From a virus, in IMG/VR virus record IMGVR_UViG_3300042892_003815, positions 126,951 through 190,950 of that record: DNA of 64,000 nucleotides. One strand, 5' to 3'. Shown here in pieces: positions 133 to 49,649 of this stretch. A program made the position numbers and the translations under genes. Position 1 is the stretch's first letter. Each line of letters begins with the position of its first letter. Below the pieces are notes generated by a model that saw nothing but the letters and a program-made list of their open reading frames with translations, was not told the DNA's origin and did no database searches.

Positions 133-708
133 TTATTTACCTTGTTTTTTTAATATAGCTTTTTGCATTGCCTCAGGAAGTTTTTTCTGTCCAGCAGTTA
201 AACCTTTTTTAGGTTCTTCTTTCTTATCATCTTTAGCGTCTTTAGCAGCTTTTTTCATAGTTTCTTTTTTATCACCATCTTTATCTAAATCTAAGAAATC
301 TGGTTTACCTTTTCCACCTTTTTTATCATCTTTTCCACCTTTTTTAGCTTTTTGTTTATCTAAATAAGCTTGGAATCCTGCATTGATTTTTTTCTTTTCA
401 ACGATTTCTTCGTCACCCCATCTTCTGATTCTGTTTTCTTCTTGTGAATCTTCTTCCTCTTCTTCCTCTTCAGAGTGACCGTAGTCATCTTCTTCTTCAC
501 CTAATTCATTAGTTTCCTCATCTGCATCTTCACAGCCACAAGGTGTTCCATTACAAAACTCACAATTTTGATCATCAAAGTCTTCATCGTTGAATTCGTT
601 ACCTTCTTCGCCAAACTTAACCACGTCACTTTCACGTTCTTGTGCGAATCTACCGAACTTATCCTCTTCTTCAAAACTAAAGTTCTCAAATTTTTTAATG
701 TGTTTCAT
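133..708 (-). CDS. Hypothetical protein with acidic N-half and Lys-rich C-half; capsid-targeting-like N-terminus
   Basis: 191 aa ORF starting MKHIKKFENF; TAATATATA upstream on minus strand (732-740). Confidence 0.8.
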   Translation of the reverse strand: MKHIKKFENFSFEEEDKFGRFAQERESDVVKFGEEGNEFNDEDFDDQNCEFCNGTPCGCEDADEETNELGEEEDDYGHSEEEEEEEDSQEENRIRRWGDEEIVEKKKINAGFQAYLDKQKAKKGGKDDKKGGKGKPDFLDLDKDGDKKETMKKAAKDAKDDKKEEPKKGLTAGQKKLPEAMQKAILKKQGK

Positions 709-779
709 ATTATTTTAAATCTATTTTTAATTATATATTAAATATTTATATCACTTTTATCGTTTTTATAATTTTTTTT

Positions 780-788
780 TAATATATA
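780..788 (+). promoter_or_regulatory. Representative phage late-promoter-like element TWATATATA (over 20 copies in window)
   Basis: Also at 6644, 10975, 12181, 20529, 28040, 37793, 43173, 49211, 49684, 52421, 56851, 61489 (+) and 732, 10162, 10943, 19217, 20501, 27972, 31035, 37104, 39572, 40761, 42260 (-). Confidence 0.7.
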
Positions 789-792
789 TGAT

Positions 793-1575
793 ATGAAAAT
801 ACAGAAATTTCAACAATATTCACTTCAAGACTCAATGGCATTAGATTTTATCAATTCATTTGATGGTTTAATCACTGAATCTGATGAAACCGAATATAAA
901 AAAGTACAAAAGCGAGTTATAAGTGATTTGAGATTAAATGGAAATTTATCTTTAACATTTGGTACAGGTATCAAAGCATTTTATCCAGTAGTAGATAAAC
1001 TAATGACTAATATGAAAATTAGCTCTATTGATATTACTGCAGACAAAGTAGTCCTTCTTACAATATGTGCATTTACAATAGTTTATTTAGAAGAGAAAAA
1101 GTTCAAAGATGGTCAAGAAGAGGAAATCTTAACAAAAGATTCTAAGTCTATGTTAGAAGAATTAAAGATGATGGGTATCGGAAATGGAATTGTTAAGAAG
1201 GTAGTTAAACTATTCAAGTCTATTACTAATATTTTCACAATAATTGGTAAACATTTAAACACAGTTACCAAAGGTTTTATTGATATGTTTGCTTATACTG
1301 CAATTCTAATACCTATAATGAATGGAATTCTTTACATAATAGGAAAATATGATCTAAGTGTAGATACTTTCCTACAAAATTTTGCTGCTTTAGGAATCGG
1401 TGTTGGAACTTTAATTGCAAAAAATGGAATAATTTCCATTATTGATAAACTTAAAGATAAAATTAGTACAAAAGATAAAAAAGAAATAGTTGATGAGGTC
1501 GATACCACTGTTATAAAGAAGGTATCAGACTTTATTACGGAACCAACCGATGGTGAAATGATTAATGAACAGTAA
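793..1575 (+). CDS. Hypothetical membrane-associated protein
   Basis: 260 aa ORF with several hydrophobic segments; TAATATATA 4 nt before ATG. Confidence 0.75.
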   Translation: MKIQKFQQYSLQDSMALDFINSFDGLITESDETEYKKVQKRVISDLRLNGNLSLTFGTGIKAFYPVVDKLMTNMKISSIDITADKVVLLTICAFTIVYLEEKKFKDGQEEEILTKDSKSMLEELKMMGIGNGIVKKVVKLFKSITNIFTIIGKHLNTVTKGFIDMFAYTAILIPIMNGILYIIGKYDLSVDTFLQNFAALGIGVGTLIAKNGIISIIDKLKDKISTKDKKEIVDEVDTTVIKKVSDFITEPTDGEMINEQ

Positions 1576-1630
1576 TTTATAGCAAACTTAAACGTAAGAT
1601 TTACTATAATAATAAAATTAATCAAAATTA

Positions 1631-2959: not shown

Positions 2960-3000
2960 ACAACAAAATTATATTTTGTATATAAAAAAATAAAAATACT

Positions 3001-3963: not shown

Positions 3964-4062
3964 AAAATATTTTTTATCAATTATAAAAAACCAATAAAAA
4001 AAAGAATATTGATTTTTTTAGATTAAAAAGTATTTCAATATATAAAAAACAAAAAATTAAAA

Positions 4063-6612
4063 ATGAGCATGATAAAAGTAATAAAAAGAAATGGTAAGAA
4101 AGAGCCAGTCATGTTAGACAAAATCTTAGACAGAATCACACAACAAACTTATGGGTTAGATCAAAAATGGATTGTTCCTTTTGAAGTAGCACAAAAAGTA
4201 ATTGAAGGTATTATGCCAGATATTCAAACTTCTGTTTTAGATTCTCTAGCAATGGAGACTGCAGCATCTCTTACAACAAAACACCCTGACTATTCAACAT
4301 TAGCGGCAAGATTAGCAATTACAGCATTACACAAAGAAACTAAAAAAAGCTTTTCAGAAACTGTTTCTGATTTATACAAATACATAGATCCTAAAACTAG
4401 AAAACATTCACCGATTGTTTCTAAAAAATTCCGTGATATTGTAAAAAAACACGCAGATGAATTAGACTCTGCAATTGTACACTCCAGAGATCATAACTTT
4501 GATTACTTTGGATTTAAAACATTAGAAAAGTCATATCTATTGAAACTTGACGGTAAAGTTGCCGAAAGACCTCAATATATGTATATGAGAACTGCACTAC
4601 AAGTTTGTGGTGAAGACATACAGGGTGTTATCGACACTTATAACTTACTTTCAGAAGGTTATTATACACACGCAACACCAACATTATTCAACTCTGGGAC
4701 AACAAGACCTCAATTATCTTCTTGTTTCTTACTTGATACAGAGTCAGATTCTATTGAAGGTATTTTCAATACACTAAAAGAATCCGCACAGATTTCTAAA
4801 AATGCAGGTGGTATTGGTATCTCTTTTACAAAAGTAAGAGCAAAAGGAACTTATATCGCAGGAACTAACGGTACTTCAAATGGTATTATTCCTTTCCTAA
4901 AAATCTTCAATGAAACTGCAAGAGCAGTAGACCAAGGTGGTGGGAAAAGAAAAGGTTCAATTGCAATTTATATGGAACCTTGGCATGCCGATATTATGGA
5001 CTTCTTAGATTTAAGAAAAAACCAAGGTAAAGACGAAATCAGAGCTAGAGATTTATTCCTGGCTATGTGGACCAATGACTTATTTATGGAAAGAGTTGAC
5101 TTAGACGAAGATTGGTCTTTAATGTGTCCTCATGAATGTCCTGGTTTAACTGAGACTTACGGTCAAGAGTTTAGAGATTTATATATTGGATATGAATCAG
5201 AAGGAAGATTTAAGAGAGTAGTTAAAGCTAGAGAAGTATGGAATAAAATCTTAGAATCTCAAATTGAAACTGGAACTCCTTATATCTTATATAAAGATTC
5301 TATCAATGAGAAGTCTAACCAATCAAACATTGGTGTAGTTAGAAGTTCTAATTTATGTGCTGAGATTGTTGAGGCAACAGGAATTACTAAAGTTCAAAAA
5401 GAAATTCTTCAAAATAAAGAATTATTAGAAAGTTTAGGATTAGGCTCATTCTATGGTGAAGAATCAGTAAATGAAACTGCAGTTTGTAATTTAGCTTCTA
5501 TCGCACTTCCTAAGTTTGTAAATAAAAACAAAACCTATAACCATAACAAGTTATTTGATGTTGCTTATCAAGCTACTGTAAACTTGAACAAAGTTATTGA
5601 TGTAAATTATTATCCATCAGAAGCAGCTAGATTCTCAAACTTATTACATAGACCAGTTGGTTTAGGTGTTCAAGGATTAGCAGATGTATTCTTTTTATTG
5701 GGAATTACTTATGACTCTGATGATGCAAAATCATTAAACAAAGAGATTTTTGAAACTATTTACTATGCTTCGATTAAAGCCTCTTGTGATTTAGCTAAAG
5801 TAGAAGGTGCTTATCCAACATTTGCTGGGTCTCCAATTTCAGAAGGTAAATTCCAATTTGACTTATGGGGTACTAAACCAACAAAAAGATGGGATTGGGA
5901 CAAGTTAAGAGAAGACATTAAAAAATATGGAGTTAGAAACTCTTTAACTACTTGTATTATGCCAACAGCATCAACAGCATCTATTCTAGGAAACGAAGCA
6001 AGTTGTGAAGCACAAACTTCAAATATGTACACAAGAGGTGTTTTATCTGGTACTTTTATCATTGTAAACAAATATCTTGTAAAAGAGTTAGTTAAATTAG
6101 GTATCTGGTCTGATAACATTAGAAGAAAGATTATTGCAGAGAATGGTTCAGTTCAAAACATACCTGAAATTCCTACTAATGTAAAAGAAATCTTTAAAAC
6201 CGTTTATGAGATTAAACAAAGAGACGTAATTGATATGGCGGCAGAAAGAGGAGCATTTATTGATCAAACTCAATCTATGAATATCTTTATGGATTCTCCA
6301 AACTTCGCAAAATTGACAGCAATGCACTTTTACGGTTGGGGAAGAAGAGCTCTTATGAAAGATGAAAATGGTGTTGAAATTATCCCACAAGGAGAAAACA
6401 CAGAAGTAATCTATGATAAATCTGGTAAGCCAAGATTTTACAGAGAGAAAAAATCAGCTTTAAAAACTGGTATTTACTATCTAAGAAATAAAGCAGCAGG
6501 TGATGCAGTTAAATTCACAACTCAAGAAGAAGTGAAATCTGTTGAAGACCAAATGGCAGAAATCAGTTGTTCGTTAGACAACCCAGATGATTGTTTAGCT
6601 TGTGGTTCATAA
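4063..6612 (+). CDS. nrdA: Ribonucleoside-diphosphate reductase class Ia large subunit with ATP cone
   Basis: VIKRNG ATP cone, ATPTLFNSG, LSSCFL, SNLCAEI, AVCNLAS, MPTAST, LKTGIYYLR, C-terminal CLACGS. Confidence 0.97.
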   Translation: MSMIKVIKRNGKKEPVMLDKILDRITQQTYGLDQKWIVPFEVAQKVIEGIMPDIQTSVLDSLAMETAASLTTKHPDYSTLAARLAITALHKETKKSFSETVSDLYKYIDPKTRKHSPIVSKKFRDIVKKHADELDSAIVHSRDHNFDYFGFKTLEKSYLLKLDGKVAERPQYMYMRTALQVCGEDIQGVIDTYNLLSEGYYTHATPTLFNSGTTRPQLSSCFLLDTESDSIEGIFNTLKESAQISKNAGGIGISFTKVRAKGTYIAGTNGTSNGIIPFLKIFNETARAVDQGGGKRKGSIAIYMEPWHADIMDFLDLRKNQGKDEIRARDLFLAMWTNDLFMERVDLDEDWSLMCPHECPGLTETYGQEFRDLYIGYESEGRFKRVVKAREVWNKILESQIETGTPYILYKDSINEKSNQSNIGVVRSSNLCAEIVEATGITKVQKEILQNKELLESLGLGSFYGEESVNETAVCNLASIALPKFVNKNKTYNHNKLFDVAYQATVNLNKVIDVNYYPSEAARFSNLLHRPVGLGVQGLADVFFLLGITYDSDDAKSLNKEIFETIYYASIKASCDLAKVEGAYPTFAGSPISEGKFQFDLWGTKPTKRWDWDKLREDIKKYGVRNSLTTCIMPTASTASILGNEASCEAQTSNMYTRGVLSGTFIIVNKYLVKELVKLGIWSDNIRRKIIAENGSVQNIPEIPTNVKEIFKTVYEIKQRDVIDMAAERGAFIDQTQSMNIFMDSPNFAKLTAMHFYGWGRRALMKDENGVEIIPQGENTEVIYDKSGKPRFYREKKSALKTGIYYLRNKAAGDAVKFTTQEEVKSVEDQMAEISCSLDNPDDCLACGS

Positions 6613-6616
6613 TAAT

Positions 6617-6645
6617 AAAATCCTCTTTTTTAAGAGGATTTTTTT
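6617..6645 (+). terminator. Intrinsic terminator after nrdA
   Basis: AAAATCCTCTT…AAGAGGATTTT followed by a T-run. Confidence 0.8.
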
Positions 6646-6657
6646 ATATATAGTATT

Positions 6658-6912
6658 ATGAAAATAAGAAAATTTAATGAGGAAATTGGGAATCCAAGTT
6701 ATCCTAATCCTCACAGACCAATGAAACAATTTGTTTTAACAACAACAAGTGAAAGTTCAGATCACTATATTTATTTTATTGAACATCCAGAAAAACCTAC
6801 ACAAGAAGAGTTAAAAAAGTTCTTAATTGAACAAGGAAATGATGTTGAAGATGGATATTCATATGAAAATGTAGATATGTGTGTTGAAATAAAAGACTTT
6901 AAAAGACTATAA
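6658..6912 (+). CDS. Hypothetical protein, capsid-targeting-like N-terminus
   Basis: 84 aa ORF starting MKIRKFNEE; TTATATATA 5 nt before ATG. Confidence 0.75.
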   Translation: MKIRKFNEEIGNPSYPNPHRPMKQFVLTTTSESSDHYIYFIEHPEKPTQEELKKFLIEQGNDVEDGYSYENVDMCVEIKDFKRL

Positions 6913-7016
6913 AAAATCCACCTTGGAAAAAAGCGAAATTTTCAAGGTTACTATATACATAAAATAAATTAAAAAAAGATTAAACTTTTTCTAATTTAAT
7001 AATACAATAATACAAT

Positions 7017-8859: not shown

Positions 8860-8885
8860 AAAAACCCACTATTTTAGTGGGTTTT
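8860..8885. terminator. Bidirectional intrinsic terminator
   Basis: AAAACCCACTA-TTT-TAGTGGGTTTT between convergent genes. Confidence 0.8.
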
Positions 8886-9330
8886 ATTTTTTTATTGATA
8901 TAATGATTGATCTGATAGCAAATTTCACACCATCTTCAATCTCATCTAATTTAACATCTTTGTAAGAAAAAACATGACTTGCAAAAGTAATATTTAAAAT
9001 TTCATAATTCTTGTCTAACATACTTAGAAATGGTATGAATTGATCTTTAATATCATTCCAGTAAAATGTCATCGGTTGATAGGGAGTATCAAAAACTGTT
9101 AAAGGAGTATCTGATCTGTAAGTTTCCCTTTCTCTATAAAGTGAAAGTACATATGAATTAGAACTTTCCGATACTCCACCTCCTCCAAATTGAGTACCTT
9201 GAGAACAATATCTATTATCTAATACTCTAACCTTAAATGTTGTGTCATCTAACAAATAAGCTAGATATGTTTCACAAAAATCTATTATTTCATTTTCATT
9301 GAAACTCTCAAATAATTTTAAATATCTCAT
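8884..9330 (-). CDS. Hypothetical protein, paralogue of 38657..39121; capsid-targeting-like N-terminus
   Basis: MRYLKLFESFNE; shares DFCETxLAYL and WxxIKDxFIPFL motifs. Confidence 0.8.
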   Translation of the reverse strand: MRYLKLFESFNENEIIDFCETYLAYLLDDTTFKVRVLDNRYCSQGTQFGGGGVSESSNSYVLSLYRERETYRSDTPLTVFDTPYQPMTFYWNDIKDQFIPFLSMLDKNYEILNITFASHVFSYKDVKLDEIEDGVKFAIRSIIISIKK

Positions 9331-10157
9331 AAATTATTATTTTTTATTATCATTTTAATGTGAGTTGAATGTGTTATTTTAACTCCAAAGTCTTTACCAA
9401 CCGTATCTTGAATAAATGGAACTATAAAATCCTGTTCATATTGAATATTATAATTTGAGGGAATTTTCTTTTTAACGGTTTCTAATGAAACTGGTAAGTA
9501 ATTCTCATTTACCTCTCTTTCCCAATTATCTAAATATCTATATTTTAATAAGAAATGACAAAATGTTCTATAATTATCATCAATAGTTCCCCATCTTTTC
9601 TCAAATTGGTCTAAGTAAAAATTATCAGCTCTTTTTCTAACCTTTTTCACATCTTGTCTAAAGTTTTCTACTTCATTTTTATGAATTTCACAAGAAGGTA
9701 TCATATCTCTAATAGTAATCCATTTGAAATTACCACCAAATACTTGTTTTTCCCAGAATTTTTTAATAACTGAGGAATGTGAATATGAATAAACTTCGTG
9801 AATAACAGAACTTAGATTAAGTAGAGGTGATTTAAAATCTTGTAGATTTTCAACAACTTGATCCCAATTATCTGTTAGTAAAGCTTCTTCTCCTAATTCA
9901 TATCTAGCTCTCTTTAACATTGTTTCATCTAAATCATATCCAATTATTTTAACATTTGGTTTTAATTGTTTTACTTTAGAAAGAAAAGATCCATTGGCAC
10001 AACCAAAATCTACAATAACATCAAAGTCTAATTGACTAACAAAGAATAACTTATCTTGCATGGACTTTTCCATACCTTCAATATATCTATCTAAGTCAGA
10101 TATTTCAGTTTCACCTACAAGTTCTTCTAAGAATAGTTGCCAATTGAGTATTTTCAT
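9327..10157 (-). CDS. Class I SAM-dependent methyltransferase
   Basis: Motif I VDFGCANG, motif II IIGYDLD, SSVIHEVYSY, ITIRD. Confidence 0.8.
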   Translation of the reverse strand: MKILNWQLFLEELVGETEISDLDRYIEGMEKSMQDKLFFVSQLDFDVIVDFGCANGSFLSKVKQLKPNVKIIGYDLDETMLKRARYELGEEALLTDNWDQVVENLQDFKSPLLNLSSVIHEVYSYSHSSVIKKFWEKQVFGGNFKWITIRDMIPSCEIHKNEVENFRQDVKKVRKRADNFYLDQFEKRWGTIDDNYRTFCHFLLKYRYLDNWEREVNENYLPVSLETVKKKIPSNYNIQYEQDFIVPFIQDTVGKDFGVKITHSTHIKMIIKNNNL

Positions 10158-18494: not shown

Positions 18495-18525
18495 AAAAAA
18501 AGAGACTTTTGAAAGTCTCTTTTTT
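18495..18525. terminator. Bidirectional intrinsic terminator
   Basis: AAAAAAAGAGACTTT-TG-AAAGTCTCTTTTTT. Confidence 0.85.
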
Positions 18526-19208
18526 TATTCTTCTAGTTTTTCAAACCACCAATTGAAGTAAATATAATTATCTCCAACTAAGTTATATACATCTGAATTG
18601 TGTTTAATAACTATTTTATCATTATGTGATCTAATCAATTCAACTTCAATTCCTTTTTCCATTCTTAATTGTTTTCCAGTTTCAACTGAATAACAAAGAA
18701 CTTCATCATTTAAAAGTTTATACATACCAGGTTCTGGTTTCAACCAAGTTTTTAATGTTTTGATAATTAAACCTTTGATTTTAATAATCCATTCTTTAGG
18801 TTGATATAAATCCGCATCTTTAAAAACTTCTGATGTAAAGTCAGGTGAGTCCGACATCATATCTTCTATAACTCCCCAGTATTCTTCTTCACCAATAGTA
18901 AATGCTATATAAATATCATATTTTAATGAAGTTGATTTAACTATTCTTAAAACTTTTAATCTTTTAATATCTTGCTCTTCTAATGCTAATTTACTTCTAA
19001 GTGCTTTATAAGCATTAGTTCCTTTTAAATTATACATAATGTCATTGATACGTGACATAGCCTGTCTAATCATATCTTGATTCTTATCAAAAGCATTTAT
19101 AGACAATGATGGATCATCTACGTGTGTCGATGCTTGAACAGAATCAGAATTCATTCTTTGAAGGTTAAATTCTGTAAATTCTAAAATTAGTTTATTTTGT
19201 CTTTTCAT
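18525..19208 (-). CDS. Hypothetical protein
   Basis: 227 aa ORF; LILEFTEF near the N-terminus resembles the capsid-targeting-like motif. Confidence 0.75.
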   Translation of the reverse strand: MKRQNKLILEFTEFNLQRMNSDSVQASTHVDDPSLSINAFDKNQDMIRQAMSRINDIMYNLKGTNAYKALRSKLALEEQDIKRLKVLRIVKSTSLKYDIYIAFTIGEEEYWGVIEDMMSDSPDFTSEVFKDADLYQPKEWIIKIKGLIIKTLKTWLKPEPGMYKLLNDEVLCYSVETGKQLRMEKGIEVELIRSHNDKIVIKHNSDVYNLVGDNYIYFNWWFEKLEE

Positions 19209-19243: not shown

Positions 19244-19561
19244 ATGAAAATAAAAAGATTTTTTGAAAGTGATCAAGTAGATATTTCCACAGAAAGAATA
19301 ACAGAAGTTATGGATGAATTAAAAGACTTCATTGCTAATATAGAAGATAGATCCAAAAAGATAGATGCACTAGGTACTGAATTAAGTAACTATAGAAATA
19401 GTTCTACTAAAAGTAATGATCAAATAGATGATTCAATTGCAGCTTTACAGATAATTAAAAAAGATTTAGATGATTGTGTTGATAAATTAGATACGGTCGT
19501 AAATAATTTAGATTCATACAATGTGGACGGGAGAAAGTATCTTTATACTGAAAACAAATAA
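19244..19561 (+). CDS. Hypothetical coiled-coil protein
   Basis: 105 aa heptad-rich ORF starting MKIKRFFES. Confidence 0.75.
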   Translation: MKIKRFFESDQVDISTERITEVMDELKDFIANIEDRSKKIDALGTELSNYRNSSTKSNDQIDDSIAALQIIKKDLDDCVDKLDTVVNNLDSYNVDGRKYLYTENK

Positions 19562-19948: not shown

Positions 19949-20479
19949 TTATTTAGTAAATTTCAATTTGTAAAGAGTTTTATAAATTAAAACAACAATA
20001 TCATCAATTATACTATGTAAGTGTGTATCTTCTGCAGAGATAGCTTTTCTACCATGTTTTACAAATTCCACTAAAGATTCAAAGTATTCTACTTTTTCTT
20101 TAGTTCTTGTAGTATTAGTATCGATTACGTCATATCCATCAACAATACCATATTGTCCTTGATATGTTTCGATTAAATCATCAATAAGTTCTAAAATACC
20201 TTCATAGTACTCATTTAATGCAGTATGTGCAGCGTGAGAACCTTGTTCACCATTTACTTGTAAGTGGTAAATATGAGCCATCTCTCTTGATTCAAATAGT
20301 TTAGAGAAAAGTGAAACTGCACTTCCTGCATTTTCTCCTTCTTGTGGTTGTGGTTCTGGTTGTACAATTTTACCAGTTTGATCAACAACATTTTCTGGTT
20401 GTTGATCTACTTGTGGTAGATTAGCAGGAGCCACTTCTTCTTGTTCGTAGATTTTTCTTATAGTAGAAAACTTTTTCAT
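19949..20479 (-). CDS. Ferritin/Dps-like four-helix protein (DUF5856-like)
   Basis: AHIYHLQV…HAAHTALNEYYE…DDLIETYQGQYG pattern of phage Dps-like proteins. Confidence 0.65.
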   Translation of the reverse strand: MKKFSTIRKIYEQEEVAPANLPQVDQQPENVVDQTGKIVQPEPQPQEGENAGSAVSLFSKLFESREMAHIYHLQVNGEQGSHAAHTALNEYYEGILELIDDLIETYQGQYGIVDGYDVIDTNTTRTKEKVEYFESLVEFVKHGRKAISAEDTHLHSIIDDIVVLIYKTLYKLKFTK

Positions 20480-20560: not shown

Positions 20561-20755
20561 ATGAAATTCATTAAAAAATATCAAATGTTTACGGAAGAGG
20601 TTGTAATAGATACACCTACTGCACCAGTAAAACCGATTTCTACAGAAGAAGATATATTGGAAGCATCAGAAGTTGATGTGATTGATAGATTTGCAAGACT
20701 TTATAAAGACTTACCAAAAGAAGAAAAACAACAAATAAATAATTACTTTAAATAA
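20561..20755 (+). CDS. Small hypothetical protein, capsid-targeting-like N-terminus
   Basis: 64 aa ORF starting MKFIKKYQMFTEE. Confidence 0.7.
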   Translation: MKFIKKYQMFTEEVVIDTPTAPVKPISTEEDILEASEVDVIDRFARLYKDLPKEEKQQINNYFK

Positions 20756-28794: not shown

Positions 28795-30522
28795 TTATCT
28801 AAGGTATTTTTTAGTTATTATATTATCGTTTTGATATATTTTAAGTATTAAGATTTGTCCGGAAGGCAAATCCTCTAAATTATTACCTTCTATTGTTTTT
28901 ATATGTCTATTAAATAAATCATAAACTTCTATCCTCTTAACTATATTTATTTTATCCTCGTCATCCTCGTCATCATCCTCGTCATCATCCTCGTCATCCG
29001 GTGACTTATATTTTATGAAGAAACGTTTATTAAATTCTCCAGTAGTAGTACTAAATGTATAAGGTTCTGAAAGATCATGCCATATATCAAAAGATTTATC
29101 AAATAAATAGACATCTTTTATCTTCCCTTCTTTCTCAATATTAATTGTAAATTGACCATTTACTGCACTAAAATAACCTAATTTAACTACATCGTCTTCA
29201 TCAAATTCCCCTCTTGCTTGTATATCATATTTAGTATCCCCCTCAATAGAATAGAATTTAAGAGGTAATCTCACATTGACTATTTTACTATCCCATCCTT
29301 TATTATAATCTAAGTCAGAACTTGAGTTATAACCAATCAATTGTTGAGAAAATAATACACCATCGGTCATATTCAACCAAAGACTTCTTTTATTATTATT
29401 ACTATTATTACTACCTCTAAAAAAAGAAACTGCCGTTGTATTGACATAAGCCTTTGACATTAAATTAGGAGTGAAAACTAAGTTATTTGTACTTTCTGCT
29501 TCTACCAAAAACCCTTGACAACTACCAATAACATTAGATGGTCTTTTACCACCAAATACTGCATTTATTCCACCTAACTTAGTATATTTTGCATAGTCAC
29601 TTGCAGAAAAATTAAATTGTGCTAAACCAGAATATGATGCACTCAATGTGTTTGTATGTGTCCAAAAATATAAAGTTCCTGATATATTTGAAATATTTGC
29701 ATCAATAAAGTCATTTGAGTTTATACTTGCCGAGTAAGGATTTCCTACTAAATTGAAATCATCAATATCACTTGTAGTATTTTGACTTAATTCTAATGGT
29801 ATACTAATTATTCCAGTATTTAAAGGTCCGATAAATGTAACTGTTTCGGTTCTAGGATAGACTCCAGTTGCAACTATTGACTTAATCATTGATGCATATC
29901 CTTTACCCGGAATCATATTATCATTTATAGTAGTTCTTGTCCAAGTATCTTGATTATCATCCTGTCCATCTGGAACATTTGATATAAATGTACCCCAATA
30001 TGATGTCTCAACATCATAAAAATTAGATGTATTAAATCTAAATGTATAATTAGGTTCCCATTTAGTTGGAAGTAAAGCCGTACCTATTGTTGTAGAAACC
30101 GGACTACTCCAATAAGTATAGTCATATCTTTTTGTAGATGGTGTTCTTCTTTCTATCTTAATAATTCCAGTAGAAATTGCACTGTTATTATTAGGAATCA
30201 GAGAACCACCAGACTTTACTAATAATGTACCTGTAGGATCAACTGTAATATTTGAATAAATATTACAGTAATCACCAACATCTATAGTTAAATATCCTTG
30301 ATTAGTAACATAAAGAGAACAACAATCTATTGAACCATCATTACCAGTATCATAAACCCCATCTATAACTGCCGTTTTTACAGAATCTGGGTTTCCATTA
30401 GACCAACTAGTTCCATCCCAAGTAGTACTATTCGTACATTGAGAATATCCATTATACACGAACAGCATCAATAAAATTGATGCTGTTCTTAATAATAGAA
30501 AATTTGTTTTTTTAATTTTCAT
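28795..30522 (-). CDS. Secreted Flavobacterium-like T9SS cargo protein (type A sorting-domain-like C-terminus)
   Basis: Signal peptide ending GYS-Q; YTYWSSPV, PGKGY, FNLVGNPY, LYFWTH, QGFLV, LWLN, IQARG, RFFIKY blocks; C-terminal VYDLFNR…LPSG…ILKI…TKK. Confidence 0.75.
   Translation of the reverse strand: MKIKKTNFLLLRTASILLMLFVYNGYSQCTNSTTWDGTSWSNGNPDSVKTAVIDGVYDTGNDGSIDCCSLYVTNQGYLTIDVGDYCNIYSNITVDPTGTLLVKSGGSLIPNNNSAISTGIIKIERRTPSTKRYDYTYWSSPVSTTIGTALLPTKWEPNYTFRFNTSNFYDVETSYWGTFISNVPDGQDDNQDTWTRTTINDNMIPGKGYASMIKSIVATGVYPRTETVTFIGPLNTGIISIPLELSQNTTSDIDDFNLVGNPYSASINSNDFIDANISNISGTLYFWTHTNTLSASYSGLAQFNFSASDYAKYTKLGGINAVFGGKRPSNVIGSCQGFLVEAESTNNLVFTPNLMSKAYVNTTAVSFFRGSNNSNNNKRSLWLNMTDGVLFSQQLIGYNSSSDLDYNKGWDSKIVNVRLPLKFYSIEGDTKYDIQARGEFDEDDVVKLGYFSAVNGQFTINIEKEGKIKDVYLFDKSFDIWHDLSEPYTFSTTTGEFNKRFFIKYKSPDDEDDDEDDDEDDEDKINIVKRIEVYDLFNRHIKTIEGNNLEDLPSGQILILKIYQNDNIITKKYLR
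28955..28998. repeat. Short tandem repeat (TCATCCTCGTCA-type) encoding a DDED tract
   Basis: Direct repeats visible in the sequence; encodes DDEDDDEDDDEDDED. Confidence 0.85.
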
Positions 30523-30538: not shown

Positions 30539-30769
30539 TTATAAACTAAAGTAATTACTTAGTATATCGATAGTTTGTTTATCATCTTCATGATACCAAA
30601 GTTCTTTACCAACTAAAGAGATTTTCTCATCAGTAATTAAAGTTCTTAATGAACCTTCTGTTTGAAACAACTCTAATTCTTCATCTTTTAAATGAATACT
30701 AGTTGAACCATCTTGTCCTTCGTTAGGTCTATAAGACTCTTTTAGAAATTCGTTAAATTTTTTTATCAT
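30539..30769 (-). CDS. Small hypothetical protein, capsid-targeting-like N-terminus
   Basis: 76 aa ORF starting MIKKFNEFLKES. Confidence 0.75.
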   Translation of the reverse strand: MIKKFNEFLKESYRPNEGQDGSTSIHLKDEELELFQTEGSLRTLITDEKISLVGKELWYHEDDKQTIDILSNYFSL

Positions 30770-30784: not shown

Positions 30785-31030
30785 TTATTTATTAAACCAA
30801 ATTACATATCTTGTACCATCTGGTTGTTCTGCACTAAATACTGGATTCTTTCTACTCATATGTAATCCATCCGAATAATAACCAGTCCCATCATCTTTTG
30901 TTATATCACCATCTTCGATAGCTTCTTTAAACTCTTGTACAGTAAAGACTTCACCATAATGAGGAATTTCATCTGTGAAAATTGGATCATTTAAACCCTC
31001 GTTGAACTTCTCAAAACTTTTTATAATCAT
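30785..31030 (-). CDS. Small hypothetical protein, capsid-targeting-like N-terminus
   Basis: 81 aa ORF starting MIIKSFEKFNEG; TTATATATA 4 nt before ATG. Confidence 0.75.
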   Translation of the reverse strand: MIIKSFEKFNEGLNDPIFTDEIPHYGEVFTVQEFKEAIEDGDITKDDGTGYYSDGLHMSRKNPVFSAEQPDGTRYVIWFNK

Positions 31031-31070: not shown

Positions 31071-31646
31071 ATGAAAAAAGAAATGAATATATGGTTCACA
31101 AGTGATACACATTACGGTCACAAGAACATCGCGGGAAAAGAGGTTTCTCGTTGGACATCAGGGTTTAGAAAATTTGCATCGGTTCAACAAATGAACGAAG
31201 CACTTATTGCTAACATCAACAAATATGTAAAAGAGGACGATATTTTATATCACCTTGGAGACTTTGCGTTTGGTGATGCTAATGTAATAAGAGAATTTAG
31301 AAACTCTTTGGTTTGTAAAAACATTCACTTAATTTTAGGAAACCACGATCAAGAAATCGAGGACTCCTTAGAATTACAAGAAATTTTTACAAGTGTTGGG
31401 TATGTTTACACAGGATATGTTGGAAAACAACAATTCCACTTATCACACTACTCACACAGAATATGGCCAAAATCTCACAGAGGTACAATACACCTTTACG
31501 GACATTCACACGGAAGTATTCCTGATTACGGAAGATCTATGGATGTTGGTGTAGATACTCACAAAGATTTTAGACCATATCACATCAACGAAATTTACTC
31601 TATAATGAGTAAAAGAGAGGTTCATAAAATTGATCATCATGGATAA
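31071..31646 (+). CDS. Calcineurin-like metallophosphoesterase
   Basis: FTSDTHYGH, LGDFA, LGNHD, SHY, LYGHSHG, DVGVD. Confidence 0.9.
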   Translation: MKKEMNIWFTSDTHYGHKNIAGKEVSRWTSGFRKFASVQQMNEALIANINKYVKEDDILYHLGDFAFGDANVIREFRNSLVCKNIHLILGNHDQEIEDSLELQEIFTSVGYVYTGYVGKQQFHLSHYSHRIWPKSHRGTIHLYGHSHGSIPDYGRSMDVGVDTHKDFRPYHINEIYSIMSKREVHKIDHHG

Positions 31647-33158: not shown

Positions 33159-33517
33159 TGGAGAGAGTAATAGTTGAAATGACACCCTTTATATTTGAAG
33201 ATGGTAATACCTACTATTTTCAAATCTTTAATAGACCGAGCACTAATGATTATCAAGATTTATATGTTTATGAAAAATCATCATATAAAACCTGGTATGG
33301 TGTCACAAAATATAAGTTTATTCAATTAAATGAACGTCCAGAATTGGTAGATTATAGACTAAGTACAAGTGAGATAAAACAAAGTATTAAAAAGATACTA
33401 ACTTGTACAAAAGCTTCATATCTAATAAAAGATTGGGATGGATTTGTCGGTGATATACCAGACCATGTAAAAAAATCATTAAGTAGAGACAATAAATTAA
33501 AAGATTTAGGAATATAA
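33158..33517 (+). CDS. Hypothetical protein
   Basis: 119 aa; TAATG coupling; ends RDNKLKDLGI. Confidence 0.75.
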   Translation: MERVIVEMTPFIFEDGNTYYFQIFNRPSTNDYQDLYVYEKSSYKTWYGVTKYKFIQLNERPELVDYRLSTSEIKQSIKKILTCTKASYLIKDWDGFVGDIPDHVKKSLSRDNKLKDLGI

Positions 33518-33948
33518 TGAAAAAATCAGCAGGGGTAATAATAATTTTAAATAATACTAAAATACTTCTTTCACACGCAACTAATGCAAGATGGGAGAAA
33601 ACCTTCTCATTTCCTAAAGGTGGAATTGAAAAAGATGAAAAACGAATAGTCGCTGCAATTAGAGAATTGGCAGAAGAGACTTCTATTGTAATTACTAGAG
33701 AACAGATTTCTAATAAAGAAGAACCCATTGTAGTAAATTATGTTGATAAATATGGTGAAAACTATAAGAGATTATACTTATATACTGTTTATATTGAAGA
33801 CATTTCCGAGATCGGGTTAGAATCTGAAATAGTACCGATTGAAAATCTTCAAGCAGATGAATTAGATTGGTGTGGTTTTCTAACAAAAGAAGAAGCAAGA
33901 GATAAAATCTTTAGTAGAGTAGAACATCTATTAGATTTAATCATATAA
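33517..33948 (+). CDS. Nudix hydrolase
   Basis: Nudix box FPKGGIEKDEKRIVAAIRELAEET. Confidence 0.9.
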   Translation: MKKSAGVIIILNNTKILLSHATNARWEKTFSFPKGGIEKDEKRIVAAIRELAEETSIVITREQISNKEEPIVVNYVDKYGENYKRLYLYTVYIEDISEIGLESEIVPIENLQADELDWCGFLTKEEARDKIFSRVEHLLDLII

Positions 33949-36259: not shown

Positions 36260-37099
36260 CTAGAAGTTCTTTTTCACTTCTGATGAAACCTCATCAATAG
36301 ACATTTGCTCACCAGATGAATTTCTAGTATTTACAACAATATCATATTTTCCCTCTGGTTGATTTTTAGTATACATCCAATATTCCTTATTATCTTCTTT
36401 GATACCTAACTTAGTTAAGAATTCATCTACCCAGTCACCTTTAAGAACTTCTTTGACAGAAGACTTCGTCCAATATTTGTCTGGATCAACTCCACCTTTT
36501 TCAGACTTAGCTTCGTACTTAAAACAATAAGCACCGACAAAAACTCCTTTAGGATCTCTACCATCAGTTCCTTTTCTTCTTTCTATATTCAAAATCAAAT
36601 GATCAATAGGAGCATGAACTAGAATCCATTTAGGTTTAGATAAACCAGACTTAGTAGTCATTTCCAATATAGTTCCTTGAACATCATCATATATAACACT
36701 TTTACATTGTTCAGATCTTCCAAACGTTCCATTATTATCTTTTAAACCTAATTTACTTATCTTACCAGACTTAGCTTCTTGAGCCATAAACCATCTAGCA
36801 GCCAATTCAAAATCATCAGTTCCTGGAGTAATTTTATAAGGACATCCTGGATAAACTTCAGATAGTTTTGATTTATCTTTATTACCGAAGTCTGCATTAC
36901 CAGCTTCTTCATTTAATAGATTATAAAATGAATCTACTGCTAAAACACACCAGTCATTTGATAAACCTTTAAGTGCAGCACTTTTACCAGAACTTGAAGT
37001 TCCATCTAATAGTATTTGTTTTGATGGTTTTACAAGTTCTTCATCATCTAACTCTTCTAAGATGATTCTAAATTGTTCGTATAATTTTAAATATTTCAT
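36260..37099 (-). CDS. P-loop kinase (AAA_33/phosphotransferase-like) with capsid-targeting-like N-terminus
   Basis: ILLDGTSSSGKS Walker A, LAVDSF, IYDD, RNxERR-like lid (LNIERR). Confidence 0.75.
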   Translation of the reverse strand: MKYLKLYEQFRIILEELDDEELVKPSKQILLDGTSSSGKSAALKGLSNDWCVLAVDSFYNLLNEEAGNADFGNKDKSKLSEVYPGCPYKITPGTDDFELAARWFMAQEAKSGKISKLGLKDNNGTFGRSEQCKSVIYDDVQGTILEMTTKSGLSKPKWILVHAPIDHLILNIERRKGTDGRDPKGVFVGAYCFKYEAKSEKGGVDPDKYWTKSSVKEVLKGDWVDEFLTKLGIKEDNKEYWMYTKNQPEGKYDIVVNTRNSSGEQMSIDEVSSEVKKNF

Positions 37100-37821: not shown

Positions 37822-38394
37822 GTGGATAAATTTAGTAGCCTTAAACCAAAAGAAGAATTTAAAAAAGATAAAGAAGAACCAGTTTATCAAGATAAACATA
37901 TGTCAGTCATTAAATTTGAAGACTGGTCAGTGGTAAAACATAAAGATTATGTTGTTTGTATTCCATACTTAATAGAGTCAAATCAAGTCATTTTAAGATA
38001 CGAATATATTCCAACATTCAAATATACAGATGGTACAGAATATCACCTTACATTAGTCGGTGGTGGCGTTGAAGAAGGTGAGGCACACGACTTAGCAATT
38101 ACTAGAGAACTTGAAGAAGAAGCTGGAATTGTTTTAAGAGAAGACTATGAACTAGAACCGTTGAGACCTTTATTCTTAACAAAGATGAATGCCAATAAGG
38201 TTTATCCTTATATCATTGCTTTACATGAAAAAGATTATCACGAGATTGTTCCAAAAGGCGATGGTACAAAACACGAAGCAATGTCTAAATCAGTAAAAGT
38301 AGATATTAAACAATTGAAAAATATTCAAGCATCAGATTTAATTACTGATTATATCTTACTAAAACTAAAAGAATATATGAACCTACAGAAATAA
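37822..38394 (+). CDS. Nudix hydrolase (ADP-ribose pyrophosphatase-like)
   Basis: GGGVEEGEAHDLAITRELEEEAG; GTG start. Confidence 0.85.
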   Translation: MDKFSSLKPKEEFKKDKEEPVYQDKHMSVIKFEDWSVVKHKDYVVCIPYLIESNQVILRYEYIPTFKYTDGTEYHLTLVGGGVEEGEAHDLAITRELEEEAGIVLREDYELEPLRPLFLTKMNANKVYPYIIALHEKDYHEIVPKGDGTKHEAMSKSVKVDIKQLKNIQASDLITDYILLKLKEYMNLQK

Positions 38395-38642
38395 TGAAAA
38401 AATTTAGTGAAAGTACAGGTCATAGAGAAAATGGTGAATGGGTAAATGAAACACCACAAGCTAAATTGAGAAATCAGTTAGGTCCGTTTTGGACTTTAGT
38501 GAGTATATTATCAGAAGAAAGATTAGATAAGATTTTAAATCATCCTGACGGTTTAGAAATGATACAAAAATGTTTAGAACAATGTAAAGATAGTCAACAA
38601 AGAATACTCGACTTAATAAAAGAAACAGAAAAACCATCTTAA
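38394..38642 (+). CDS. Small hypothetical protein
   Basis: 82 aa ORF starting MKKFSES. Confidence 0.7.
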   Translation: MKKFSESTGHRENGEWVNETPQAKLRNQLGPFWTLVSILSEERLDKILNHPDGLEMIQKCLEQCKDSQQRILDLIKETEKPS

Positions 38643-38656: not shown

Positions 38657-39121
38657 TTAGTCTTCTAAATTCATTTTATATTCAATGTCAATTGAAATTT
38701 CTGAAATAGTTTCTAGCTCACGAAAGTAAATAAACAAACTAAGATCATCTTCCGATATGATTTTATCAACATCATATGATGCATATGTTTTAGGAAGTCC
38801 ATTTACTAATGGATTAAATTTTACACTTTCATAACATATCACATATTTTCTTGATAAGTGTGTTAAAAAAGGAATAAAATAATCTTTAATTTCTTCCCAA
38901 GTAAATCCTTTATATTTACTTCCTTCTTTAAGAATAGAAATATGAAAGTTTTTATGTGTATAATCATTTGAAACCTCAACTAAAAAGTCTTTATCTATAA
39001 GATAAGCTAAATGTGTTTCACAGAAATCTCTAAGTTCATCTAATTCACCTTCTTCGGGTTTAGAACTAAAATAAAAACTTCTAGTATCTTTATCCTCATT
39101 ATATCTTTTTAAGTATTTCAT
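38657..39121 (-). CDS. Hypothetical protein, paralogue of 8884..9330
   Basis: MKYLKRYNED; DFCETHLAYL and FTWEEIKDYFIPFL. Confidence 0.8.
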   Translation of the reverse strand: MKYLKRYNEDKDTRSFYFSSKPEEGELDELRDFCETHLAYLIDKDFLVEVSNDYTHKNFHISILKEGSKYKGFTWEEIKDYFIPFLTHLSRKYVICYESVKFNPLVNGLPKTYASYDVDKIISEDDLSLFIYFRELETISEISIDIEYKMNLED

Positions 39122-39122: not shown

Positions 39123-39566
39123 TTAGTAATATCTTTCTAATCCTTCTTTAATTATATCCCCGTGGTCAAATGCCAATTGAGGCAGTTCAGAAATAGCGAA
39201 CCATTTCACTTCCTTAGCGTCATCCGAAGCAATAGGGTTGGCTTCTTCTCCAACCGTAGCAAAGTAAGCCACAGAAATATTATGACTTCTAGGGTCTCTA
39301 TTTGGCTTTCCAAAAGCACCAATTTGTTTCATTGAAATAACTTCAACTTGAGTTTCCTCCATTAGTTCTCTTCTAGCAGCGACTTCTAAATCTTCATTTT
39401 CATCAAGAAATCCACCTGGTAAAGCCCAATGATCTTTAAACGGTTCATTTTTTCTTTTGATTAAAAGAATTTCATCAGTTGATTCTTTGATTACAACTGC
39501 ATCAACGGTTACAAATGTTTTTGAAACGTAAACCTTTGTCTCATTAAATTTATCTAAGTATCTCAT
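39123..39566 (-). CDS. Nudix hydrolase (ADP-ribose pyrophosphatase / NadM-Nudix-like) with capsid-targeting-like N-terminus
   Basis: TVDAVV, LLIKRKNEPFKDHWALPGGFLDENEDLEVAARRELMEET, RDPR, LAFDH. Confidence 0.92.
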   Translation of the reverse strand: MRYLDKFNETKVYVSKTFVTVDAVVIKESTDEILLIKRKNEPFKDHWALPGGFLDENEDLEVAARRELMEETQVEVISMKQIGAFGKPNRDPRSHNISVAYFATVGEEANPIASDDAKEVKWFAISELPQLAFDHGDIIKEGLERYY

Positions 39567-40826: not shown

Positions 40827-42011
40827 ATGATAAACGTAAACAAATTTATACCTGAACTATTCTTAAAACTAACTTCAAAGACTTACCCTCACGGATATGA
40901 GGATATTTGTTTAGAAGAAATGGTAAGTCTTGGTTATTTACCAAAAGACATCAGTAAAGACACTCACGGTAACTACTTCTACAAAATTGGAGAGTCAAGA
41001 ACAATCTTTGCTTCTCACTTAGATACGGTCTCTAGTAAACACGAACCAGTAAAACACGTACTTGATGGTGAAACTATTAGAACTGATGGTACAACTACAC
41101 TTGGTGCAGATGATAAAGCAGGTGTATCTATTATGATTTGGATGATGAAACATAAAATTCCAGGAACATATTACTTTTTCATTGGTGAAGAAGTAGGTTG
41201 TATTGGTTCTGGTCTAGCTGCAAAATATGGTGAATTTAAAGGTATATATGATAGAATTATTTCTTTTGATAGAAGAGGTACTACATCAATTATTACTCAC
41301 CAATCTTGGGCAAGATGTTGTTCAGATGCTTTTGCAGATGCGTTTTGTGCAGAATTAAACAAATCAGATTATAAGTTAAATTATGTCAAAGATGATGGCG
41401 GTGTTTATACTGACTCTGCTGAGTTCGTTGATCTTATTCCAGAATGCACCAACGTTTCTGTTGGATATTATTCAGAACACACTAAAAATGAAAATCAAGA
41501 TATTAGACACTTAGTAAACTTAGCGAGTGCTTGTTTATTAGTTGATTGGGAAAACTTACCAACTAAAAGAGATACATCGGTTTATGAAGGTAAATCTTTT
41601 AAAACTTACAGTACTGCTTCTTATCCAGCAGACTGGGATAACTACGCTACTAAAACTAAAAGAGCAGATACTGGAAGTTCTTGGAGTAGAAGTGGTACTA
41701 AGAGTAGAGACGTTACTTACTACCAAGATTGGTATGATAATTCTGATGATATTATGATGCGAAATGGTGGTAAGAAAACAACTAGAAGAGGAAATAAGAA
41801 AAAAGGTAAAACTTATTTCGATAATGGTGGGAACTTAGTAGAAATTTCTACACCAAACGATAAACAATACGATTGGCTTTTAACAAAATACAATGGTATT
41901 AAACTAAAAGAAAGAGAATTAGAAGTAATTAGAGAACAATATCTAGATATTGAGAACAATGATTATGATAAATTTTTCTACGAATGTTTAGTAGAACAAA
42001 TGTTAGACTAA
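40827..42011 (+). CDS. M28/M20-clan zinc peptidase
   Basis: ASHLDTV, LGADDKAG, GEEVGCIG, SFDRRG, YTDSA, SVGYYSEHT. Confidence 0.85.
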   Translation: MINVNKFIPELFLKLTSKTYPHGYEDICLEEMVSLGYLPKDISKDTHGNYFYKIGESRTIFASHLDTVSSKHEPVKHVLDGETIRTDGTTTLGADDKAGVSIMIWMMKHKIPGTYYFFIGEEVGCIGSGLAAKYGEFKGIYDRIISFDRRGTTSIITHQSWARCCSDAFADAFCAELNKSDYKLNYVKDDGGVYTDSAEFVDLIPECTNVSVGYYSEHTKNENQDIRHLVNLASACLLVDWENLPTKRDTSVYEGKSFKTYSTASYPADWDNYATKTKRADTGSSWSRSGTKSRDVTYYQDWYDNSDDIMMRNGGKKTTRRGNKKKGKTYFDNGGNLVEISTPNDKQYDWLLTKYNGIKLKERELEVIREQYLDIENNDYDKFFYECLVEQMLD

Positions 42012-42015: not shown

Positions 42016-42043
42016 AAAAAACCCATCTTATGATGGGTTTTTT
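42016..42043. terminator. Bidirectional intrinsic terminator
   Basis: AAAAAACCCATC-TTAT-GATGGGTTTTTT. Confidence 0.85.
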
Positions 42044-42255
42044 ATTTTATGTTTATCTAATATTTCAGATGTCTTTATTACTTCATCTGGTGCATTTCTT
42101 ATGACAGAACCTTCTACATCATGACTTATCTTAAACCTAGATTTTGAGACCTTTTCAATTATCTTCACTGGTGTTATCATATCGTTATACCAGTATTCAG
42201 TAAGAACAATATCACCTTCTTTATAAAATGCTTTGTATTCAAGTATAAATTTCAT
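42028..42255 (-). CDS. Small hypothetical protein (possible SH3/KOW-like fold)
   Basis: 75 aa ORF starting MKFILEYKAF; TAATATATA 4 nt before ATG. Confidence 0.7.
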   Translation of the reverse strand: MKFILEYKAFYKEGDIVLTEYWYNDMITPVKIIEKVSKSRFKISHDVEGSVIRNAPDEVIKTSEILDKHKIKNPS

Positions 42256-43137: not shown

Positions 43138-43203
43138 TATAACAATTATTCTCTTTATAGGTACTCAATTTTTAATATATACAATGAAAAAAATTTTTTT
43201 GTT

Positions 43204-43419: not shown

Positions 43420-43422
43420 TTT

Positions 43423-49194: not shown

Positions 49195-49223
49195 AATTAC
49201 ATTTTAAATTTAATATATAGTAT

Positions 49224-49649
49224 ATGATAAAGAAATATTCACAATTTATAAACGAAGCTGATCAAACTCAAGTTGAACCACAAGCTCAACTAGAGAAACC
49301 AGAAGGCATTAAATCTTTAGATGACTCTAAATATACTGAAGTTAAAGAGGAAATAAATAAAATGATTGAAAATACCATTCAAAAAAGTGGTGGAGAGTTA
49401 AAATCATTTATTGAATCATTTGAAAAGAATCCAGAAGATGTTAAAGTTGAAGGGTTTATAAATGACTCTGATATATATGACTTTTATTTAAAATTCAGAA
49501 ATGATGTTGATGAGATTCTAAATAACATAAAGTTCTATGATGAATCGCCTACTGAAGTAAATGCGTTTGGGTTATATGAATATGTAATAAAAGGAACAGA
49601 ACGAGCTTTTATGGAAGTCGTTAAAATGATAAACAAAAATCCTCAGTAA
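49224..49649 (+). CDS. Hypothetical protein, capsid-targeting-like N-terminus
   Basis: 141 aa ORF starting MIKKYSQFINEA. Confidence 0.8.
   Translation: MIKKYSQFINEADQTQVEPQAQLEKPEGIKSLDDSKYTEVKEEINKMIENTIQKSGGELKSFIESFEKNPEDVKVEGFINDSDIYDFYLKFRNDVDEILNNIKFYDESPTEVNAFGLYEYVIKGTERAFMEVVKMINKNPQ

Follow-up and report, generated by a model that had tools for sequence, protein, structure and literature searches.

Internal proteins of bacteriophage T4 share only an N-terminal leader, the capsid-targeting sequence (CTS), which steers their packaging via the scaffolding core (PMC3012670, PMC12373910). At least 10 kinds of internal proteins occur in T-even phages, Ip1–3 inhibit GmrSD restriction enzymes, and the T4 leader is able to load foreign proteins as well (PMC12373910, PMC3012670). 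In the current study, a comparable leader was followed up in a 64,000-nucleotide (nt) stretch of viral DNA (the window), positions 126,951–190,950 of the IMG/VR record IMGVR_UViG_3300042892_003815, in which an initial annotation had noticed about 19 proteins with a CTS-like start; all 19 N-termini were found in place. The leader is very probably a functional, portable peptide tag. The chances are about even that it is a sorting tag like the CTS, with the prohead as destination and 10–20% of the proteome as its bearers, and the two leaders are possibly homologous. No paper describing this leader was found in the literature.

Giant phages of the phiKZ and SPN3US type are similar to the present phage in being large and, if its leader proteins are packaged, in having many non-structural head proteins; they have about 50 head proteins, several of them cut by the prohead protease. 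To our knowledge, no single short N-terminal address tag is shared by the head proteins of these phages, and their propeptides are long and varied. Their prohead protease is related to that of T4 and cuts after Glu (PMC5694885, PMC7411985, PMC10052503). Other N-terminal tags of huge phages (MNWYK..., MNRYDIALGKKP...) resemble the present one in that many unrelated proteins open with one short peptide, but their sequences are different, and the present tag alone matches the T4 CTS. Among cellular systems, the encapsulation peptides of microcompartments and the cargo-loading peptides of encapsulins are short, terminal and joined by a flexible linker, and they load unrelated enzymes into a shell, which in encapsulins has the HK97 fold found in phage capsids. 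They differ from the present leader in sequence; encapsulin tags are usually C-terminal and uncleaved, and no other cell receives the cargo.

The window is the final 64 kb of a 190,950-bp contig (29.5% GC, CheckV completeness about 33%), in which 201 genes were called by a simple longest open reading frame (ORF) rule. Its ribonucleotide reductase is 84% identical to the counterpart in LR756502.1, a 642-kb uncultured phage; Tenacibaculum and Cellulophaga phages come next, with about 50% identity. When cultured phages were searched by megablast with the tail-gene region, nothing matched. Bacteroidetes are the predicted hosts of the 'Mahaphage' clade (PMC7162821). Homologues of the T4 core genes gp41, UvsX, gp43, gp44, gp47, gp4, gp18, gp20, gp23, UvsW and NrdA are present on the contig. 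For comparison, three near-complete leader-bearing genomes of 436–676 kb were used (G004, 476 kb and 97% complete; G005, 676 kb and 98% complete; G006), together with two IMG/VR records, G001 (182,728 bp) and G007 (281,114 bp). The CheckV values of the latter two (84 and 94%, respectively) are misleading, and both records are fragments.

The leader was defined by an eight-column weight matrix, [HYMW][LI]K[KLT][FY][EN][QEN]F, refined on the first residues of the contig's own gene starts. Scores above 10 are called strong and scores of 4.8–5.4 intermediate; a core score is that of the shorter matrix core. Strong scores were obtained at 41 of the 201 gene starts, about one gene in five, versus eight of 57,288 internal protein positions, which corresponds to 0.11 expected at N-termini. 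The absolute counts flatter the matrix, because it was trained on the same N-termini that it scores; the contrast is nevertheless more than 100-fold. The motif is also frequent in genomes that the matrix had not seen: 66 of 638 gene starts in G004 (versus 20 of 138,433 internal positions), 43 of 398 genes in G007 and 38 of 258 in G001. A further 95 IMG/VR stretches, selected for one exact copy, have the leader in 238 of 1,130 genes. It is thus spread across the whole contig and its relatives, beyond the window. Two registers occur, MKYLKxFExF and the shorter MIKK[FY]xxF. In a third form (MRKFSDFIKEE, window 20757) Met alone precedes the core, as in T4, and for this reason the eight-column matrix misses it.

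AT-rich codon bias where genes begin could in principle have generated the motif, a possibility the initial annotation had itself raised, as could shared protein ancestry, and Lys, Ile, Phe, Tyr and Asn are indeed common residues in a genome of this base composition. The chance that either accounts for the leader is now negligible. Among decoy ATGs, i.e. non-gene ATGs followed by an open frame, six of 3,047 score above 10; in another count the rate is 0.18%, or about 0.4 false positives expected, versus 20% of real gene starts. A negative control is pT24, a complete Tenacibaculum phage of 28.7% GC whose host belongs to the Flavobacteriaceae. The full matrix picks out a single, marginal ORF among its 297, and the core picks out none; therefore, neither base composition nor translation in Bacteroidota produces the motif. 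The DNA encoding MKYLKLFE is matched exactly in 95 stretches from about 60 IMG/VR contigs, each with a GC content of 20–36%, and only twice in 596 Gb of prokaryotic sequence, one genome each of 185,579 species. One of the two matches is an out-of-frame chance match. The other lies on a contig of 24% GC that was binned as archaeal (JAFGOA010000025.1, in a 'Promethearchaeota' metagenome-assembled genome), where positions 5251–6840 hold three to four adjacent small leader genes (MKHIKTYEN, MKYLKLFED, MKYLKKYED); this contig is probably a mis-binned virus of the present kind. The leader is virus-specific, and the decoy ATGs, pT24 and the prokaryote scan together rule out a host or composition effect. 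Shared ancestry is countered by the bodies of the leader proteins. BLAST sorts the 41 strong proteins, trimmed of their first 16 residues, into 39 groups, so that the proteins are unrelated, as had been claimed, and paralogy is ruled out. The only paralogues related beyond the leader are a trio, encoded at window 8884–9330, window 38657–39121 and contig 87918–89015.

For comparison with T4, columns 2–7 of the matrix, learned on this phage only (core K[KLT][FY][ENDQ][QEN]F), were scored over all 279 T4 ORFs. The top four of the 279 are IPIII (13.6), IPII (13.6), IPI (12.8) and gp61.1 (12.8), and the next score is 10.8; among 49,076 internal T4 positions, a single one scores as high as 12. The resemblance to the CTS that had been noticed is statistically real, with a chance probability from about 1e-6, if three independent matches in the top four are counted, to 1e-2, if one match is counted; the range arises because the three T4 leaders are mutually related. 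T4 IPII and IPIII start MKTYQEFIAE|A and the product of window 49224 starts MIKKYSQFINE|A, giving a common K.Y..FI.E|A. A BLAST search of the T4 proteome against the contig revealed no similarity to the bodies of the T4 internal proteins.

The likeness extends to organization. Both leaders are N-terminal tags of about 10 residues that are the sole common part of otherwise unrelated proteins, with a core K-x-[FY]-x-x-F that is often followed by [LI]-x-E; in T4 the CTS (MKTYQEFIAE or MKTFKEF...) is cleaved by gp21, the prohead protease. The two phages also have in common a portal, protease, scaffold and capsid protein of T4 type, and cargo genes that are fast-evolving and accessory. There are differences. 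Here, one to three extra residues stand between Met and the core, giving two registers, and position 5 is often Asn. The leader occurs on 41 genes per 191 kb and at least 66 per genome, compared with three in T4. Acidic proteins, some of them enzymes, make up the putative cargo, and the protease forms a single fusion protein with a scaffold that contains tandem repeats. T4 gp61.1 (NC_000866 18966–19130, 54 residues, MKTFKEFIKED...) itself has an IPI-type leader followed by an IKE site and scores among IPI–III; we know of no report of its packaging.

The modular nature of the leader is best seen in a Nudix hydrolase encoded at window 39123–39566. The protein is 65–67% identical to NUDIX hydrolases encoded on the chromosomes of Flavobacterium psychrophilum and other members of this genus, and these start, without a leader, at the residue aligned with position 13–14 of the phage product. 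The phage protein and three metagenome versions prefix MRYLDKFNETKVYV, MKHLKTYESKVYV or MKYLKTYESETTEKKVYV, and the metagenome versions bear MKYLKTYES.... An AlphaFold2 model on that alignment has a confident fold (mean pLDDT, the model's confidence score, of 88) that begins at residue 17 or thereabouts, while residues 1–12 have a pLDDT below 50 and no secondary structure. Homologues, model and Pfam domain bounds thus agree that the leader is a detachable add-on of 8–12 residues ahead of the Nudix domain and outside the cargo fold. The high identity to Flavobacterium enzymes suggests that this gene was recently captured from a host and that the host genus is Flavobacterium. A second Nudix protein of the window, 26% identical to the first, lacks a leader. 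Otherwise, Pfam searches with 38 leader or candidate proteins mostly returned no family; the exceptions are Nudix, SAM (S-adenosylmethionine) methyltransferase, GH108 muramidase, an NFACT-R domain and DUF5856.

Leader status follows the gene family across genomes. When homologues in G004 were sought with the leader excluded from the search, 12 of the 17 found for leader genes score above 10 (bodies 30–71% identical), and the remaining five have weaker leader forms or a mis-called start; for non-leader genes the leader is present in one of 85 homologues. Leader variants interchange between homologues, e.g. MIKNWNQFIRE and MKHLKPFNIFEA. Leader genes diverge from G004 faster than other genes (median identity 47.8% versus 58.7%, p = 0.006); a homologue was found in G004 for 19 of 41 leader genes versus 99 of 160 others, a non-significant difference (p = 0.08).

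Selection acts on the peptide. Synonymous codon use in the conserved columns equals genome-wide use: the last Phe of the leader is encoded by TTT 24 times and by TTC seven times (78/22% genome-wide), and Glu by GAA 15 times and by GAG five times (77/23% genome-wide). For Tyr in the first motif column TAC accounts for 41%, versus 19% genome-wide, and codons ending in C are not avoided. The freely varying synonymous sites rule out a nucleotide cassette.

These observations bear on an explanation at the level of expression, in which the first 10 or so codons, or the nascent peptide, aid initiation on transcripts that lack a Shine–Dalgarno sequence or are leaderless, and promoter and start together spread as a gene-capturing cassette. 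The promoters are relevant here. A TTT[AT]ATATATA box precedes about 88 of the 201 contig genes with a bimodal spacing to the ATG, 4–5 nt or 20–24 nt; examples in the window lie upstream of 133–708 (−), 6658, 12210, 30785–31030 (−), 49224, 52451, 56884 and 61503. The short spacing suggests that mRNAs of these genes may be leaderless or nearly so. A separate gene set has a Bacteroidetes-type TAnnTTTG element, e.g. before window 25400, 37150 and 40827. Transcription units headed by the box include 37 of the 41 leader genes, and units headed by TAnnTTTG include no leader genes and 20 non-leader genes (p = 0.008), with the proviso that the box is nearly palindromic, which blurs unit assignment at divergent gene pairs. 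The spacing of 4–5 nt in 13 of the 24 leader genes with their own box would suit an effect on initiation, as would the fact that a single base change suffices for most of the allowed substitutions (F/Y, L/I, K/R, H/Y) and that the host-derived Nudix gene gained both leader and phage promoter context. However, this spacing is as common in non-leader genes (26 of the 64 with a box), which rules out the link to leaderless mRNAs as the explanation; the codon usage is that of the genome, 109 genes use the box without having a leader, pT24 is equally AT-rich and has a Bacteroidota host but no motif, and homologues swap leader variants of different DNA while keeping the residue pattern. An effect on expression is consequently an improbable account of the leader.

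The portal, protease–scaffold, sheath, baseplate and fibre genes also lie behind this box, T-run included, and to this extent the view that the leader genes follow a late-type promoter is supported. The label 'late' is an overstatement and is unjustified, because the 109 non-leader genes headed by the box include that for ribonucleotide reductase. The leader is absent from all 14 homologues of T4 core genes for replication or structure.

The head machinery of the phage is of T4 type. The portal protein is encoded at contig 49264–51033 (Portal_T4, 204 bits) and the capsid protein at contig 56271–57992 (Gp23, 102 bits); the latter shares KW.P.LE with T4 gp23 at its N-terminus and has a conserved SINE|N at residues 40–44. 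Between them, contig 53963–56182 encodes a 739-residue protease–scaffold fusion, whose N-terminus has a weak Peptidase_S77 match (17.8 bits, below cut-off). The remainder is scaffold-like, with about 12 tandem 14-residue repeats, YSEY[LI]AENLDKNI, each containing an [LI]-A-E site, followed by a very acidic, His/Glu-rich stretch. The same repeat-bearing fusion, with a nearly identical N-terminal domain, is present in G004, G005 and G006, each of which also encodes a capsid protein of gp23 type; searches for a T4-type portal in G005 and in the present contig found one in both. G001 and G007, which have leaders but no T4-type capsid protein or portal, are not counter-examples, because they are fragments collinear with head-less parts of the contig or G004. 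In pT24, portal, protease–scaffold and capsid protein are of T4 type (33 bits on S77 for the protease–scaffold ORF, which was not aligned to the contig fusion), but the scaffold repeats are absent.

Leader-like starts also occur within the head module. Just past the capsid gene, contig 58066–58458 encodes a stand-alone NFACT-R domain protein, MRLKKYKQFNES, and contig 59874–60455 a very acidic 193-residue protein starting MIQKYKRFIER. In G004, the homologue of the NFACT-R protein is extended by 100 residues at its N-terminus, and its leader-like sequence lies at an internal Met. In the same part of the contig, two of three paralogues resembling M28-type peptidases sit directly after the capsid gene (contig 58496–59872 and 60486–61763; the third is at window 40827–42011). 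They are 45–52% identical to a single G001 protein, the Pfam match of one is marginal (21.3 bits), and a role in trimming head proteins is conceivable. Elsewhere, a mini capsid-fragment gene, an ORF of about 69 residues at contig 29699–29905, matches the middle of the Gp23 family (56 bits).

Sequences behind the leader were compared with the specificity expected of such a protease. In 16 of 41 proteins, Leu or Ile directly follows the final Phe of the leader (position +1), and Glu occurs at positions +2 to +5 in 17–27%, versus a background of 6.5%. Within six residues of the last Phe, [LI]xE is found in 24% of leader proteins versus 7% of controls on this contig (p = 0.003), and in 26% versus 5% in G004 (p = 2e-7). 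For the wider pattern [LIVFM]xE, the contig values are 54% versus 23% within 10 residues (p = 0.00035) and 76% versus 49% within 30 residues (p = 0.004); in G004 they are 70% versus 48% within 30 residues (p = 0.001). A protease site is therefore favoured directly behind the leader, with an enrichment of four- to fivefold, although it is far from universal. The sites in the scaffold repeats ([LI]AE|N) and in the capsid protein (SINE|N) would fit a T4-like specificity of the phage's protease.

The 19 window genes originally put forward, together with one contrast case, are as follows (coordinates are those of the window).

133–708, minus strand: leader gene, 191 residues, MKHIKKFENFSFEEE, no Pfam family; score 22.2, core score 16.3; own TTTAATATATA box; homologue in G004 65% identical, with the leader kept as MKYLKKFENF

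793–1575, plus strand: weak candidate and doubtful member, 260 residues, MKIQKFQQY; score 1.2; the LR756502 counterpart begins MKIQRYNEH

6658–6912, plus strand: leader gene, 84 residues, MKIRKFNEE; score 10.9; box 4–5 nt before the ATG

8884–9330, minus strand: leader gene, 148 residues, MRYLKLFESFNENE; score 20.9; member of the paralogue trio

9327–10157, minus strand: SAM methyltransferase with intermediate leader MKILNWQLFLEE; score 4.8; Pfam Methyltransf_12/25 from about residue 47; the LR756502 counterpart begins MKIFNWQLFLEE

18525–19208, minus strand: weak candidate and doubtful member, 227 residues, MKRQNKLILEFTEF; score −7.7

19244–19561, plus strand: gene with intermediate leader, 105 residues, MKIKRFFES; score 5.4; the LR756502 homologue is 51% identical and begins MKKIRKFNES, score 10.6

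19949–20479, minus strand: DUF5856 protein with weak leader MKKFSTIRKIYEQ, 176 residues; score −11.4; DUF5856 over residues 81–172, E 3.6e-17; best PDB match a Dps, non-significant at E 0.12

20561–20755, plus strand: leader gene, 64 residues, MKFIKKYQMFTEE followed by a Pro/Thr-rich linker; score 14.1, core score 12.7; the LR756502 counterpart begins MKFIKKFEKFLES

20757–22481, plus strand: 574-residue protein with MRKFSDFIKEE, a leader in the T4 register followed by an IKE site; eight-column score weak, core score 7.7

22497–24572, plus strand: leader gene, 691 residues, MKLFKYNQFL; score 14.4; Ank_2 match at E 0.0024, below cut-off; homologues in G004 and LR756502 (35–44% identical) retain M(K/G)(L/I)FKYNQF

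30539–30769, minus strand: leader gene, 76 residues, MIKKFNEFLKE|S, with an LKE site in the T4 register; score 21.0; the G004 homologue begins MIKKYADFIKES

30785–31030, minus strand: leader gene, 81 residues, MIIKSFEKFNEG; score 11.8; box 4–5 nt before the ATG

33517–33948, plus strand: second Nudix gene, without leader (contrast case); NUDIX domain from residue 4; in a run of 12 small leader-less genes that starts at 31071 behind a TAnnTTTG-type element

36260–37099, minus strand: leader gene, 279 residues, MKYLKLYEQFRIILEE; score 22.4, the best of the contig; weak P-loop kinase match from residue 28 (CPT, E 0.0023, below the Pfam cut-off)

38394–38642, plus strand: weak candidate, 82 residues, MKKFSES; score −8.2, core score 7.4; in a host-type TAnnTTTG unit and probably not a member of the leader set

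38657–39121, minus strand: leader gene, 154 residues, MKYLKRYNED; score 14.5; paralogue of 8884–9330

39123–39566, minus strand: Nudix hydrolase with grafted intermediate leader; NUDIX domain at residues 19–139

42028–42255, minus strand: gene with intermediate leader, 75 residues, MKFILEYKAF; score 5.0; own box

49224–49649, plus strand: leader gene, 141 residues, MIKKYSQFINE|A followed by an acidic Gln/Pro-rich linker; score 18.1; of the window leaders the closest to the T4 tag; the G004 homologue begins MIKKYLQFIKEA

The peptide is thus shared, at a strong score, by 10 of the 19; four are intermediate and five weak, among them 20757–22481 with its core in the exact T4 register. Of the intermediate leaders, those of 9327–10157, 19244–19561 and 39123–39566 are supported by homologues and that of 42028–42255 is not. 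The enzymes that had been listed among the bearers fare unevenly. Nudix and SAM methyltransferase are solid in Pfam, but their leaders are intermediate; the P-loop kinase and ankyrin matches fall below the Pfam cut-offs; and the Dps-like assignment was overstated, being based on DUF5856 and a non-significant PDB match, in a gene with a weak leader. At the far end of the window, the last ORF (61503–64000) runs off the end and climbs to 41% GC; assembly may have stopped there because of the Gly/Ser-rich tandem repeats (...SGSSGSSGTSG...) with which the contig terminates.

The prohead is supported as destination in that the leader specifically matches the T4 CTS, the head machinery is of T4 type, cut sites are enriched behind the leader and the promoter class is shared with virion genes. 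Several observations weigh against it. The T4 match spans six residues, and convergence is therefore possible; nor are IPI, IPII and IPIII mutually independent. An [LI]xE in the T4 register follows only 24–26% of leaders, and about one-quarter to one-third have no [LIVFM]xE within 30 residues. The promoter box is not specific to late genes. As seen in pT24, the same kind of head genes can occur without the leader, so that this type of head does not require it. Leader proteins are hydrophilic and have no membrane segments; they are acidic (median isoelectric point about 5.0, versus 5.5–5.8 for the rest), unlike T4 IPII and IPIII, which are basic. With a median of 192 residues (range 57–895), they are not the small proteins of the IPI–III type, of which a head contains hundreds of copies and which bind DNA or inhibit GmrSD. 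No documented case comes near to 66 or more different cargo proteins per genome, and no virion proteome or N-terminal sequencing of this uncultured phage was found in the literature.

Some of these points would also suit a sorting, docking or recognition tag with another destination. This could be an intracellular compartment or hub built by the phage, or the tag could be read by a modifying enzyme or by a protease that serves maturation or timing. The modular, heritable, peptide-level evidence fits such a tag equally well, and the acidic cargo, the very large number of tagged proteins and the many leaders lacking a cleavage site in the T4 register suit it. It would leave the specific match to the CTS and the [LI]xE enrichment behind the leader unexplained, and no constant partner was found (ClpP was examined; other families were not systematically searched). 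This alternative is the main rival to the prohead, although it is considered unlikely. A further reading, that the leader is an N-terminal degradation signal conferring a short, timed life via ClpP or another protease, is very improbable. The contig does encode ClpP (89076–89735, 63% identical to a G001 protein) and an NFACT-R protein, a domain associated with ribosome rescue, and the leader is exposed and unstructured in the AlphaFold2 model. However, phage ClpP is absent from the leader-bearing, 98% complete G005 (ClpX and adaptors were not searched for) and is therefore rejected as the constant partner, and it was not found on the fragment G007 either; the CTS match and the [LI]xE enrichment would again be unexplained.

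If the prohead is the destination, the following sequence of events may be proposed. Leader proteins would be made from TTT[AT]ATATATA-type promoters common to virion genes. The aromatic-faced leader (K-x-[FY]-x-x-F-[LI]) would then dock on the scaffolding core of the prohead, formed by the protease–scaffold fusion with its dozen or so Tyr-rich repeats, which are a possible docking array. The cargo would become enclosed as the gp23-type shell forms and, in a subset, the S77-type prohead protease would cut the leader off at the following [LI]xE site. Cargo would remain with the DNA in the head and enter the next host cell alongside it. In this phage group the tag stands on 10–20% of genes, mostly encoding fast-evolving, acidic, soluble proteins of no assigned function, together with some enzymes, one of them probably captured from a host. 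More tentatively, Bacteroidota phages of 0.4–0.7 Mb (Mahaphage type) might in general load about 70–150 proteins by one T4-derived tag as an injected 'starter proteome', newly acquired host enzymes among them, the Tyr-rich repeats being an expanded docking array; this is possible, but somewhat doubtful.

Should the destination prove not to be the capsid, a tag on 10–20% of the proteome would still imply an undescribed sorting system. If it is the capsid, the leader would be a second, divergent loading tag for foreign proteins in T4-like capsids, and the route by which new cargo is recruited would be the placing of about 10 codons ahead of a captured host gene. The products of one-tenth to one-fifth of the genes would then be cargo, active in the host ahead of all phage gene expression. 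The whole injected arsenal of an uncultured phage would be readable from its genome sequence, and the injected proteins listed in this way would be prime candidates for counter-defence and host takeover. If the tag works as in T4, what has been a curiosity of three T4 proteins would become a major organizing principle of the largest known phages.

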